64,000 nucleotides of DNA from Heptranchias perlo (Eukaryota), in assembly GCF_035084215.1 (NCBI RefSeq), contig NC_090326.1:60636001-60700000 (forward strand), in the 5' to 3' direction. The position numbers and the translations under genes were made by a program. The first letter of the stretch is position 1. Every line of letters begins with the position of its first letter. Positions 40,899-51,754 of the stretch are shown in pieces. The notes beneath the pieces are model-generated. The model was not told the DNA's origin and made no database searches. It saw nothing but the letters and a program-made list of their open reading frames with translations.

Positions 40899-41219
40899 AT
40901 TGTCTTTTTATCCTATGGAGAAAGAAACACTTTAAAAATCCTTTGTTGCTGCTGCTATTTACTACACTACCTATTTACCTGCTATATTTATCGGAATCTA
41001 ATTGTAAAATACTTGTGCACAGTGTTGGTGTGTATACATATGGATGTGTGCTTCTTACACACCACTATTGCAACTTTGTAAAGGGAAAAAAATCAACCTG
41101 ATCCTAACTGAGCTAAGTTTTGAAAGTTATGAATAACCACCAATAACTCAATTAATAGCACCTTAGCTTATGAATTAGTTTCCACTCTCTTCTCTAGTAT
41201 CAGTCTCATTAATGATTAC

Positions 41220-41356
41220 GATGTGGAGATGCCGGTGATGGACTGGGGTTGACAATTGTAAACAATTTTACAACACCAAGTTATAGTCCAGCAATTTTAT
41301 TTTAAATTCACAAGCTTTCGGAGGCTACCTCCTTCCTCAGGTGAACGATGTGAAAA
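41220..41356 (-). mobile_element. Penelope-like pLTR / retrozyme-like mini-element with 12-bp TSD
   Basis: Flanked by ATTAATGATTAC at 41208-41219 and 41357-41368; homologous to 49229-49323; contains a hammerhead core. Confidence 0.82.
41307..41345 (-). ncRNA. Minimal type-I hammerhead ribozyme motif
   Basis: RNA UUCAC-CUGAGGA-A-GGAGG-UAG-CCUCC-GAAA-GCUU-GUGAA: stem I UUCAC/GUGAA, CUGANGA box, 5-bp stem II, GAAA box, palindromic AAGCUU in place of stem III. Confidence 0.75.
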
Positions 41357-43724
41357 ATTAATGATTACAACAGTATTTTACATATTGTGTGGCTCAGTAT
41401 CTGAAGCAGTGTAGTATCTGATTCTCAATCAGAATCTTTACAGTTCAGAATTCTGGGTTTCCTGTTTCTCTAACTATCAGCCCTGTGGAGAAAGTTAATC
41501 AGCTCTCAGCAAGGCCTTCAGATGAAGCAGCACACAGGGGTGAAATGCTTGATCTTCAAGGGGACAAAGAAGACAGTATTCCCATTCCACACTGTTCAAA
41601 TGCACCTCCTGATGAGTCAATTGGGGAGCAGAATAGCCAATAGAGGAGAGCTGTGTGGATTGAGGGAAAGGAAATTTATTTGAGAGACAAAAAATGCAAG
41701 TTTCTCTTTATGGCATGTTATTTATGAATATATCCACTGAAATCTCAGATACTGGCCAAATAGAAAACCTTAAGTTGCAAAACATGATTTTAATGAAATG
41801 TCAAAGTGTTGGTGGTCATTTAGAAATGATGTATCTCCCAGTTAAAGATATAGGACTGAATTTTTAGCTTGTATCTTTAGGCAAAATGCTTTCCGAGGCT
41901 TCATAGACCTACTTTCAGGTCCAGTGCTGGAACAAATGTTTGCTCCACATTGGCGATGATTCTATTTATACCTCAAGCAAATGGCCTGCTAGAAGTAATA
42001 CCAGCTGAGAGCCGGTGTGAGAGCAGTGTGATTTAAAATAGAAAGAGCCTACTCCTGTGTGGCAGGAGCTCAAATGACGTATTTTTTGCTCCCTGGGGAT
42101 GTGGGGGTCGGGGGGAGGGGGGTTCCAAATATTATTTTTTTAAAAACCATCAAAACTTTTATAAATGTTGAGATGTTTTACTCTAAGCCTGATGTTCAGT
42201 TTTCTGCTGATGCTGATTCAAATATGGCCGCCAGAGCAGAACAAAAGATCTGCATCTGCGTGGCCATGTCATTTGCATATATTAACAATGCCAGACTACA
42301 CTGGGCTTGACAATACAGTTTTTCTTAGCTGCTTAAATATGAAATGTTTACACTGTGTTAGCTAAAGGAATAGCATTCGTCTTTTGTTTGTGCAAAAATC
42401 CAACCCTTAGCTTTTTACTCGTTTTATTTAAAGCAACTATTATTATTAATCTATTTTTTTGATGCCTTTAACCGTGTAGCATTGAAGCATTAGATTTTTC
42501 ATATTGGCTGTGTTCCAAACAACGAGGTATAAGAAATGAGGATATAGGGTGCAATACATCGTATGAAAATTATCATATAACATATAGTTAAAAAAGGCTT
42601 ACCAATAACTCGAGTTCACTTATTGCATCCTAATTGACATCAGCAGAGGCCAGATAACTTTTCTCAGTCACTTTGCAAAGAACAAGACTAAAATTATTCT
42701 TTTTTCAGAATGTTCTGCACAAAAAGACAAATGTCTTATCGCTATTAAATTCAGGGCATAAGTCATACCAGTTCATCCAGTTCTATACCCTGCAAATCTA
42801 AAGTACAACTTATTAAACTTCCTCACTGGAAAAGCGGGAGAGCTGCAAGTTGGGAACTCTAAACTCTGTGGCCAATTGCCCAATCTGCACTCCCACCGAG
42901 CAAGGCCCCATACCAAGAGCAAAGCTTTGCAAAACTTGCCCTATAGTTTTTCAGAATTACAGAAAAAAATGAGACACCTCGTATGAGATGCAATGTAACT
43001 TATAATCATTGATATAAGCCTCACAGTGGGACAGGTGCTTGTTCGCTTTACAACATGTGCAGCAATTTCTGTGGTTGATTTTTTTTTATTTAGCTAAAAG
43101 GAATAATTATGGAAAGAAAAGGGAAACAAAGCTGCCCATGGAAACATGAACCACCTTTCAAAGAAAGTAACAACTTTTTACACAAGAATAAGATAATAAC
43201 TTTTCCTTAAGTCATGATAATGCTGTCATAACACTATTTATTAAAAAGAAATTAGAGATTCAAATTAAGGGATTTCATGACTTATGATTCTTTTTACATT
43301 CTAATAATTGTTGACTAATTAACTTGTTTCTAGCAGTTTCTTTGACTTTAATGATGTAATCCCATAAGATCTTGTTGTTCATGTAGATGCAAATAGTGAT
43401 GCATTTCAATAATTAGTAATGAGTTTTATGGTATGCAATCTTACTTATATCCTGCATGTTCATAATGTATAAAGCCATTCAGAGTCACATAAAATTATAA
43501 TAGCATTACGCAATTATTGACATCACAAATTTCAAGTTTAATTTATTAATTCATATAATATGTCTATTATTATTGTTATTCTGATTTTAATGTCCTGATT
43601 CTGGTGAATTAAATGCATTTGTCTTTTTACGATTCTTGAACTTTGGAAGTGTACTGCCATAGCCAGTAGAATTACTGCTGTAGTAAAAGATTTTCAAGTC
43701 TGTAAATATATTAACTAATGATTT

Positions 43725-47807: not shown

Positions 47808-49202
47808 TTTAACGGAGGATAGAGGATGGGAGGCCGGTGAGGATAGCATTGGAATAGTCAATTCTGTAGGTAACAAAGGCATGGATCAGGGTTTCAGCAG
47901 CAGATGGGCTGAAGCAGGGGAGGAGACAGGCGATGTTGCAGAGGTAGAATTAAATGGTCTTTGTGATACAGAGAATATGTGCTCGGAACATTAGCTTGGG
48001 GACGAATAGCATGCGATGGTTGAGAGCAGTTGGATACAACAGTGGCCAGAGAGGGGTTGGAATTAGTGGCGAAGGAACTAAGTTTGTTGAGGGGGTGGTG
48101 GGGGGGAGGCGATGGATTTGGTCTTCCCAGTGTTTAACTGGAGGAAACTGTGGGTGCATCCAGGACTGGATGTCGGATAAGCAGGGGGATAATAGAGAGC
48201 CAGTGGAGTGGTCAAGAGATATTGAGGAGAGGTACAGCTGGGTGTCAGCATACATGTGAAACCTGATGTCATGTCTTTAGATGATGTCACTCATTGAGGA
48301 GCAGCATATAGATGACAAATAGGAGTGGGCGAAGGATAGATATTTGGGAGACTCCAGAGATAACGGAATGGGGGCGGGAAGAGAAGCCATTGCTGGAGCT
48401 GCTCTGGTTATGATTAAATAGGAAACAGTGTAACCAAACGATGGTAGTCCTACTTAGCTGGACAACAGAGGATTGGCATTGGTGGAGGATGGTGTAGTCG
48501 AATGTGTCAAAGGCTGCATACAGATCAAGAAGGATAAGGACGGATAATGCACATAGAATCATAGAATCATTGAATCATAGAAAGGTTACAGCATGGAAGG
48601 AGGCCATTCGGCCCATTGAGTTCGCGCCGGCTCTATGCAAGAGCAATCCAGCTAGTCCCACTCCCCCGCCCTTTCCCCGTAGCCCTGCAAATTTTTTCCT
48701 TTCAAGTACTTATCCAGTTCCCTTTTGAAGGCCATGGTTGAATCTGCCTCCACCACCCCCTCAGGCAATGTATTCCAGATCCTAACCATTCGCTGTGTAA
48801 AAAAGCTTTTCCTCATGCCACCTTTGGTTCTTTTGCCAATTACCTTAAATCTAAGTCCTCTGATTCTTGACCCTTCCGCCAATGGGAACAGTTTCTCTCT
48901 ATCTACTCTGTATAGACCCTTCATGATTTTGAATACCTCTTTCAAATCTCCTCACAACCGTCTCTGTTCCATGGAGAACAACCCCAGCTTCTCCAGTCTA
49001 TCCACATAACTAAAGTCCCTCATCCCTGGAATCATTCTAGTAAATCTCTTCTTCACCCTCTTTAAGGCCTTCACATCCTTCCTAAAGTGCAGTTCCCAGA
49101 ACTGGACACAATACTCCAGTTGTGGCCGAACCAGTGTTTTATAAAGGTTCATCATGACTTCCATACTTCCATACTTTTGTACTCTATGCCTTTATTTATA
49201 AA

Positions 49203-49323
49203 TAACTCTATGCCTTTATTTTTTCCATACCGTTCACCTGACGAAGGAGGAAGCCTCCGAAAGTTTGTGGAATTAAAAATAAATTTGTTGGACTATAACT
49301 TGGTGTTGTAAAATTGTTTACAA
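49203..49323 (+). mobile_element. Second hammerhead-bearing Penelope-like mini-insertion, inside the CR1, 12-bp TSD
   Basis: TTTATTTATAAA at 49191-49202 and 49324-49335; body homologous to the reverse complement of 41253-41350. Confidence 0.8.
49233..49271 (+). ncRNA. Minimal type-I hammerhead ribozyme motif (variant)
   Basis: UUCAC-CUGACGA-A-GGAGG-AAG-CCUCC-GAAA-GUUU-GUGGA; core boxes and stem II intact, stem I has one G-U pair. Confidence 0.68.
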
Positions 49324-51754
49324 TTTATTTATAAAGCCTAGGATCCCGTATGCTTTTTTAATCACTTTCTCAACCTGTCCTGCCACCTTCAATGATTTGT
49401 GCACATATATCCCCAGATCTCTCTGTTCCCTTTTAGAGTTGTGCCCTCGAGTTTATATTGCCTCTCCTTGTTCTTCCTACCTAAATGTATCACTTCGCAT
49501 TTTTCTGCGTTAAATTTCATCTGCCACGTGTCCGCCCATGCCTCCAGCCTGTCTATATCCTCTTGAAGTCTATTACTATCCTCCTCACTTCCAAGTTTTG
49601 TGTCATCTGCAAATTTTGAAATTGTGCCCTGTACACCCAAGTCCAAGTCATTAATAAATATCAAAAAAAGCAGTGGTCCCACCACGGTCACAGTCACAGA
49701 GGATATCATTTGTGACTTTGATTATGGACTTTTTCGTGCAGAAACCGATTCAGAGAGATTCAGGTATAGAGTTGTGGGAAAAATGGGCACGGATTTGTGA
49801 GGCGACAACATGTTCAAAGACTTTGGAGAGGAAAACAAGGTTGGACAGAACAGTCAAGGATGAGTTTTTTAAAAAGAGGGGCGATGACAGTGGTTTTGAT
49901 CGGGAGGGGGACAGTGCCTGGGAAGAGTGAACTATTTATAATGTCAGGTAGCATGTGGGCTAGGAAGGGAAGTTGGATGGTTAGCAATTTAATGGGAATG
50001 GAGTCAAGAGAGCAGACGGTGGGTCTCATGGACAAGATGACCTTGGAGAGGGCATGATAGAAATAGGAGAGAAGCTAGAGAAAGGTGCAGGTTCAGGGCT
50101 ATGGCAAGGGGGTTCCTTGGAGGAGGTTTGGCTTGGTGGACAAAGGGAAGCGGGGATATGGCAAAAGCAACTGAATGGATGGTCTCAATCTTAGTGACAA
50201 AGAAGTCCAGGAGCTCCTCGCACTTGTTTTTGGAGGTGAGGGTGGGAGGGACAAGGGAGACAGTTTGTAGTGTAGAAAAGAAGCCGGGGATTATCTTTGC
50301 ATTCCAAAACAATCCTGGAGTATTGAGCAGTTTTGGCAGAGGATAGAAAGGTCTGATTGCATTTGATGTCATCAAACCAGATCGGTCGATGGATGGCTAA
50401 ACCAGTTGTGTGCCAGATACATTCAAGTCTGCATCCTTTGGACTTGAGGACGCAAAGATGAGGGCCATAAAAGGGGGAACGAGAAGGGTAGGAGAGAGTA
50501 AGGGTTTTACTGAGGACAAAGGCATCAAAAGTGGAGGTGAGGGAATGATTGAGCAGATTGAAAGATTGGAGGGTTAAACGCTAAACAGTTGGGAGTTTGA
50601 AAGTGCAGTTGTAAATGACTTGGGGGAGAGTTTTTTCCAGGGACAGATGCAGGGGGAAGTGGGGTTGGAAGAGGGTAAGGGGTAATGCGTGGTGAGAGGT
50701 ACAAGGATATGGGGAGGACAGAAGGGCAGTGAACTCAGAGAGAGGAGAAGGTGCGTTGAAATGGAGATTGAAATCACCGAAAACTAAGTCATTCAATGCA
50801 GAGGCTGAGGGAGAAAATGAGGGAGGATCTCAAGGTGAGAAGCTCGAGGTGGGGCTTGGGGAAGGGGGGGGGATGGTAGCGAATGAGGATCACTAAGGAG
50901 AGGCAAGAGTGGTGGAACAAAGTGAGGTAATCGAAAGGAGGAGAAAGTGCCTGAGGAGTAGGGGGAGAGACCAAGGTGGCAGTTCCCTATTTCTAGTGCT
51001 CAGAGACGAGGTAAAATCACATGCCTTGCTGAAGTACTAACTTACTACAACCACTGATGCTCTTGTCGGTCCTAGCTTTCACTGGCAGGAACATTTGTCC
51101 ATTTTTCAAGCAGTGGAGAGGGAACTTTTCCCTGAGAATAGCCACTGTTATTCCTGACTTCAGATTGATGGATGTATCACTAGTTACAATGTGGAAAAAT
51201 ATTCCATTCCGCATCATTGCCATCCCGTACTTGGATGGACTCATACCGACAAAGAATATTTCTTTGAAAGAGAAGGGAACTTTCTCAGAGAACTAATTTT
51301 AAACAGCTTGGTAGGGAGATATCTGAGCCATTTTAAACAAAAGCCAAAACAAAGTTTCGTATTAAAATGCATTGAGATTGCTGAACATAAGGCTAAATTG
51401 TATTGCCCCAAGCAATAAGATGTTTTCTTTTCCAGAGAGTTGTGTGCTTGTGTTTTCAATCGGAAAGTGTGTATTTGGTGTGACATATAAAAAATGGATG
51501 AAAGACATATAAAGGATGAGACAAATCAAGAATATTTACACACTACAATTCCCCTAATATTAAAATATTCTGTTATAAATATGTACACACTTTAAAATAA
51601 CGGTAAGAGCTTTTGTTTTCATTTCATACAATTACATTAAAGATCTTGAGGCAAATAAGGATGCAAGAACAAGAAATTATGCCAGCCCATCTCCTCACTT
51701 TGTTATCCAAGTCCAGTTTCAAACCCAATCTGACTTTTTTTCTCATTGTGTCAT

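Follow-up and report, generated by a model that had tools for sequence, protein, structure and literature searches.

Background

EN+ Penelope-like elements (PLEs) of the Neptune/Nematis type carry a hammerhead in their pLTRs and a single ORF coding for a reverse transcriptase (RT) plus a GIY-YIG domain at the C-terminal end, with a CX2-5CxxC linker upstream of GIY-YIG that is common to both clades, and their insertions are described as partial tandems with an inverted 5'-truncated arm, a tail of 30-40 bp and target site duplications (TSDs) of ~8-14 bp (PMC8557442; PMC3846280). That the tail lies at one side only is known qualitatively (PMC8557442; PMC3846280), and Arkhipova et al. interpret pairs joined head to head as the outcome of self-priming, the template being antisense (PMC3846280). 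A transcription start has been placed inside the pLTR, and the rebuilding of a promoter-bearing partial tandem was left without an obvious mechanism (PMC2377424). For PAc/Poseidon of Anolis, in vitro work indicates that the tail is flanked by two neighbouring internal sites at which RT starts, that both strands of AT-rich targets are cut and extended, that ribozyme cleavage is dispensable for insertion and RNA downstream of the start sites is required, and that the protein is a predicted dimer (PMC11167929). Minimal PLE hammerheads have an extra base (positions 9/10.1), a G-C pair closing stem II, palindromic positions 15.2-16.2 and no loop 3, and occur mostly singly or as opposite-strand pairs, which were attributed to truncated PLEs (PMC4209133). 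Non-LTR retrozymes are defined by tandem repeats bearing the hammerhead ribozyme (HHR), which yield circular RNA (PMC7229834; bioRxiv 10.64898/2026.07.22.740005).

The insert studied here lies in a 64,000-nucleotide stretch of Heptranchias perlo DNA (the window) and had been predicted to be a hammerhead mini-retroelement. It resembles non-LTR retrozymes in being short, non-coding and of low GC, with a type-I hammerhead, a relationship to PLE pLTRs and a long TSD, but it is itself a single copy, and its family is almost wholly single or head-to-head, with few tandem junctions, fixed ends and no permuted or seamless unit junction (PMC7229834; bioRxiv 10.64898/2026.07.22.740005). It is an ordinary stub of a known retrotransposon class, within the insertion spectrum of EN+ PLEs. 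Its value lies in family statistics, as tens of thousands of young copies provide sharp numbers on the PLE cycle, namely two 3' registers each used once per event, a stagger of 12-14 bp and a TATA-linked 5' wall. These numbers bear on the origin, within that cycle, of the pLTRs, of the tails and of the head-to-head pairs.

The insert in the window

Position 0 of the element numbering is C3, the leading C of the core of the hammerhead (41340, minus strand). The predicted 12-bp TSD, ATTAATGATTAC, was found intact on both sides of a 137-bp insert (Table 1), and the probability of such a flanking repeat arising by chance was roughly estimated at ~6e-5.

Table 1. Coordinates of the insert and of its parts in the window
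Feature	Position	Strand	Basis or remark
TSD copy at the 3' (tail) side of the element, 12 bp, ATTAATGATTAC	41208..41219	.	sequence; compare the family TSDs
TSD copy at the 5' side of the element, 12 bp, ATTAATGATTAC	41357..41368	.	sequence
Whole insert, 137 bp, equal to PLE pLTR/5' leader positions -16..+120	41220..41356	-	
5' leader as far as stem I; starts one base inside the family 5' wall (-17)	41346..41356	-	
Hammerhead stem I, 5' strand	41341..41345	-	fold and arm comparison
Hammerhead segment from core C3 (41340) to stem II	41333..41340	-	arm comparison; PMC4209133
Stem II, 5 bp, with 3-nt loop	41320..41332	-	fold and arm comparison
GAAA box and palindromic AAGCUU replacing stem III	41312..41319	-	predicted to be cleaved between 41312 and 41311
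Hammerhead stem I, 3' strand	41307..41311	-	fold and arm comparison
Remaining pLTR to the first 3' end point of the family (~+85)	41255..41306	-	3' end distribution
PLE 'tail', 35 nt, stops at +120, one base ahead of the ORF ATG in ORF-bearing copies	41220..41254	-	

The original prediction had also described a terminal duplication, ACGATGTG at 41218-41225 and again at 41345-41352, the left copy sharing two bases with the TSD, as the mark of a permuted 127-nt unit. The duplication is present, but it does not define such a unit: the element itself carries CCACATC twice, in the leader and at the tail end, and the family tail continues with A rather than with GT, the GT of the window copy being derived from the TSD. 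The apparent redundancy therefore consists of the element's own duplicated motif plus two TSD bases.

Neither a TATA box nor a partner hammerhead is present in the insert, which is thus likely inert. We regard it as a likely dead by-product, informative on the way in which PLEs copy themselves, rather than as a new circular-RNA element.

On the plus strand, a polypyrimidine tract and an AG are followed by a 53-codon frame running to a stop (41481-41643), which is a candidate last coding exon. If so, the insert would be intronic, in antisense orientation and ~110 bp upstream of the acceptor. A second, older short copy is found at 49222-49325 (+); it covers -16..+86 with 90% identity, has no tail, and is accompanied by a 12-bp TSD (49191-49202 / 49324-49335) and by filler DNA repeating the target flank.

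Source element and copy number

The search for an RT and GIY-YIG Penelope with the same pLTR, suggested with the original prediction, was successful in the same genome. The insert is colinear from -16 to +120 with an ORF-bearing copy (L035), with 135 of 137 nucleotides identical and 2 differences. In ORF-bearing copies, the ATG of the ORF begins with its A at +121. The L035 ORF codes for 902 amino acids with an RVT_1 match, and GIY-YIG/CCHH-like motifs can be read from the sequence at its C-terminal end. Pfam made no GIY-YIG call on the L035 protein, and PF01541 is present in some homologs. A CX4CxxC linker was found by a script scan in 6 of 9 long loci, L035 having a Ser at one Cys, and the closest named homologs are shark proteins (80-97%). 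Judged from these motifs, the source of the insert is an RT and GIY-YIG PLE with a Neptune-type linker, resident in the same genome. The predicted non-coding unit mobilised in trans is thus non-coding, flanked by a TSD and dependent on a PLE protein, but it is no separate mini-retroelement, being colinear with the pLTR end of an autonomous element.

As in the described EN+ PLEs, a tail (35 nt), inverted insertions (48 of 69) and partial tandems (L208, L190 and L178) were observed (PMC8557442; PMC3846280). PAc differs in that its ORF starts inside the hammerhead and its tail lies within the ORF (PMC11167929), whereas both hammerhead and tail are upstream of the AUG here.

Copies in the 3.25-Gb genome were counted by pattern searches with exact probes. 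The 30-mer of the hammerhead core (0..+29) gave 6,221 matches, a 34-mer covering +36..+69 gave 44,996 and the tail-ATG junction 209. The core is uniform, 94 of 101 arms being identical across 80 nt. Uninterrupted PLE reading frames of 918 residues occur in tandem and partial-tandem arrays on contig 1 (two in L190, and L188, L172 and L178), which indicates that the family is young.

The hammerhead fold

On the minus strand, TTCAC pairs with GTGAA as stem I, and the other parts are CUGAGGA, a single additional A, stem II with 5 bp, GAAA and GCUU. The minimal type-I hammerhead of the Penelope type that had been predicted is therefore borne out, with its core boxes, the extra base 9/10.1 and the palindromic minimal stem III, and the motif shows no difference from the minimal PLE hammerheads as described in PMC4209133; its cleavage here is a prediction. 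Folding z-scores were weak (about -1.8 to -2.0), and Rfam returned nothing at gathering score and no hammerhead match up to E 10. The pairs of stems I and II are, however, kept in 253-289 of 289 related arms. C-G pairs of one subfamily are replaced by T-A in another, and G-C pairs by A-T, although these arms are related by descent, so that the swaps are not independent events, and positions 0-1 and 22-28 were set by the alignment anchors. It is this retention of the helices with compensatory swaps, rather than folding energy alone, that supports the fold. For the AAGCUU palindrome a duplex of -4.3 kcal/mol was computed. When two hammerheads were folded together, the result was a dimer with swapped stems and not the active double hammerhead.

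3' ends and head-to-head pairs

The 69 insertions with an exact core comprise 48 head-to-head pairs and 21 that, like the insert in the window, consist of a single arm. TSDs of 9-14 bp flank all 48 inverted pairs, and they measure 12-14 bp in 46 of them. For the single arms, a narrow search found TSDs of at least 8 bp in 7/21 (control 30/1,380), and several further single arms have filler DNA. Among 123 arms the 3' ends are bimodal, 62 lying at +81..+94 and 61 at +117..+129, a pattern shared with the two adjacent internal RT starts of PAc/Poseidon (PMC11167929). One tailed and one untailed arm were found in 45/46 inverted pairs (p 1e-12; one mis-binned locus, L036, and L052, a duplicate of L051, left out). 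When 47 pairs (without L052) were classed by arm length, 36 were short-short, 11 long-long and none mixed, where 17 mixed pairs were expected. The inverted junctions vary from locus to locus.

At least 5 nt of the ORF start are reached by 21 of 99 tailed arms (control 2/1,287), which makes it likely that the template extended into the ORF; these bases could also come from the source copy's own long terminal tail.

Several independent insertions were noted at or near one AT-rich site of another abundant repeat (window 49324-49350; L002, L042, L173, L178, L205, L207), which is a possible target hot spot. Judged by its translation, the repeat may be CR1-like.

5' ends and the TATA box

In a sample made up of the first 100 listed matches of contig 1, and thus not a random draw, 69 arms started at -17..-1 (mode -17/-16) and four at -37..-18; the stretch -59..-38 held no start, and 26 arms extended beyond -60. 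Start calls based on extension may overshoot by 1-2 bases through filler or microhomology; starts of long arms were taken from BLAST bounds, ungapped-extension calls at -63, -146 and -170 being indel artefacts. Genome-wide, a probe covering -25..+9 had 1,852 matches against 6,221 for 0..+29, a rough comparison since the probes differ. The original prediction had named beforehand, as the outcome speaking against it, copies that are simple truncations without permutation. This is largely what was found, except that the 5' ends stop at a fixed wall and are not random truncations.

In the subfamily of the window copy (A type), the TATA box TATAAATG starts at -46, 29 nt above the wall at -17, and the A at -17 lies within TCATTTC, which is Inr-like. 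We take both motifs to fit the TATA/Inr consensus and spacing. In the sister subfamily (B type; 1,513 matches) the box lies at -38, and 16/28 arms are short ones that begin at -8..-1 (Mann-Whitney p 1e-5; L139 and L154, which are A-type upstream, left out of the B sample). Box and wall thus shift together between subfamilies, 29-30 nt apart in either case, whereas the spacing between wall and ribozyme differs. We infer that the wall is where transcription of the mRNA starts, set by the pLTR TATA/Inr. Unlike the EN+ PLEs as described in the available text of PMC8557442 and PMC3846280, ~70% of the arms here start at this fixed wall. No description of a class of short PLE copies bounded by a transcription start site was found in the openly available literature that was searched, and no discussion of the 5' ends of short genomic copies was found in the available text of PMC11167929. 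A splice-acceptor origin of the wall was ruled out, as an AG precedes it in neither subfamily.

The wall could alternatively be a place where cDNA begun at the 3' pLTR is ordinarily truncated by a stall just upstream of the hammerhead, due to sequence or structure, for instance a hairpin or the footprint of a protein. PLEs are as a rule truncated at the 5' end (PMC8557442), a palindrome is present in the B-type upstream region, and in an unbiased sample 13/50 B-type arms, compared to 3/39 A-type arms, begin in the interval from the TATA box to the predicted start; the B-type wall is thus leakier, which counts against run-off at the mRNA 5' end. We nevertheless consider a stall unlikely, because no arm of 100 that passes -37 stops before -60, because the wall keeps its distance to the TATA box and not to the ribozyme (-17 versus -8), and because mixed short/long pairs are absent (0/47). 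In addition, no stable hairpin was found at the wall in the A-type subfamily.

Proposed mechanism

The insert, a short copy of ribozyme and tail, was probably made by target-primed reverse transcription that was initiated in the tail just before the AUG and ran off the 5' end of the mRNA. The pLTR TATA/Inr would drive an mRNA beginning at about -17, and the PLE protein would bind the pLTR-ORF junction and cut AT-rich DNA on both strands, ~12-14 bp apart. The two nicks would then prime at the internal sites +85 and +121, producing the usual head-to-head pair or, as in the window, a single arm. Synthesis of cDNA would halt at the RNA 5' end, with the ribozyme copied uncut, as a passenger, and the window copy would be the single-arm, tailed product of this run-off. 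If the wall is indeed the transcription start, most insertion events copy only the element's 5' leader, and the 'solo' minimal hammerheads abundant in fish and amphibian genomes could be explained without circular RNA. Against the run-off explanation, the starts are spread across 16 nt below the wall, for which added trimming or premature stops would be needed, and the pairs may instead be products of self-priming (PMC3846280).

In retroviruses, minus-strand strong-stop DNA is primed internally by a tRNA near the 5' end of the RNA and runs off at the cap. The short copies resemble it as a functional analogy only, since here nicked target DNA would prime and the product would integrate directly. 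A more speculative extension, which we regard as doubtful, would make them the PLE equivalent of strong-stop DNA: a unit-length mRNA would start reverse transcription only at its 5' pLTR-ORF junction, a dimer would prime the two registers with run-off at the cap, and occasional transfer of the cDNA end to the identical -17..+121 of the 3' pLTR would rebuild the promoter-bearing partial tandem.

A SINE-like, non-autonomous family, whose short masters are themselves transcribed and rely on the PLE protein for mobilisation in trans, would agree with the very high copy number (44,996 matches to +36..+69) and the uniform core (94/101 over 80 nt); an internal promoter in the D. virilis Penelope (PMC2377424) and non-autonomous PLE derivatives (PMC8557442) have been reported as well. 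It is nonetheless very unlikely, as the short arms share subfamily variants with the long copies, lack a TATA box and frequently end in ORF bases, and the inverted junctions differ among loci.

Tandem copies and the ribozyme cleavage site

The original prediction ascribed permuted ends to a self-cleaved monomer or circle and proposed a search for circular permutation and for tandem arrays among the genomic copies. The ends proved to be fixed, at about +85 or +121 on the 3' side, and the seamless junction expected of a 127-nt circle had no match genome-wide. Tandem arrays do exist, although the window copy is single and they are few compared to the tens of thousands of arms. A gapped tail-to-ribozyme probe, which allowed gaps of up to 15 nt and so missed longer ones such as a full join of +121 to -17, gave 19 matches, of which 8, at 6 loci, are true short tandems. 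Its single seamless match (L115) was rejected as one arm with a chance flank match. The trimer L112/L113 (G000:C4:104.01 Mb) has a period of 136 nt, with units of -16..+119 and both CCACATC motifs kept at the junctions. This rare arrangement is consistent with synthesis having re-initiated repeatedly after run-off, and only in loci of this kind could a dimeric hammerhead form. In one contig, from a run whose type is uncertain, the tail end is joined to -4, which may represent either a genomic tandem or a circle.

Arms sampled irrespective of the ribozyme (95 minus 6 duplicates) retain sequence upstream of the cleavage site in 83 of 89 cases, so that the template was mostly uncut, in agreement with PMC11167929. 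The other six start at +27..+36, near the cleavage site, compared to four at +1..+26, and a minor pool of cleaved template is therefore possible; L175 and L204, which have an indel and an intact ribozyme, were left out of this post-cleavage count. Arms starting at or just past the predicted cleavage site (+27..+36) were noted at L164, L170, L180, L158 and L161, and at L001 and L038.

Although the helices of the hammerhead are maintained through compensatory changes, six loci hold head-to-tail short units, one of them a trimer of 136-nt period, and the tail-to--4 contig may be a circle or a genomic tandem, a retrozyme-like ~127-nt self-cleaved monomer or circular RNA reverse-transcribed with permuted ends is hardly credible against ends that are fixed away from the cleavage site, arms that span this site, the lack of any genuine seamless junction and only 8 tandem junction matches.

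Finally, in the inverted pairs L200 and L205 one arm has C and the other G at hammerhead position N7, each being a common variant of the family, which hints that the two arms of one event may come from different RNAs.
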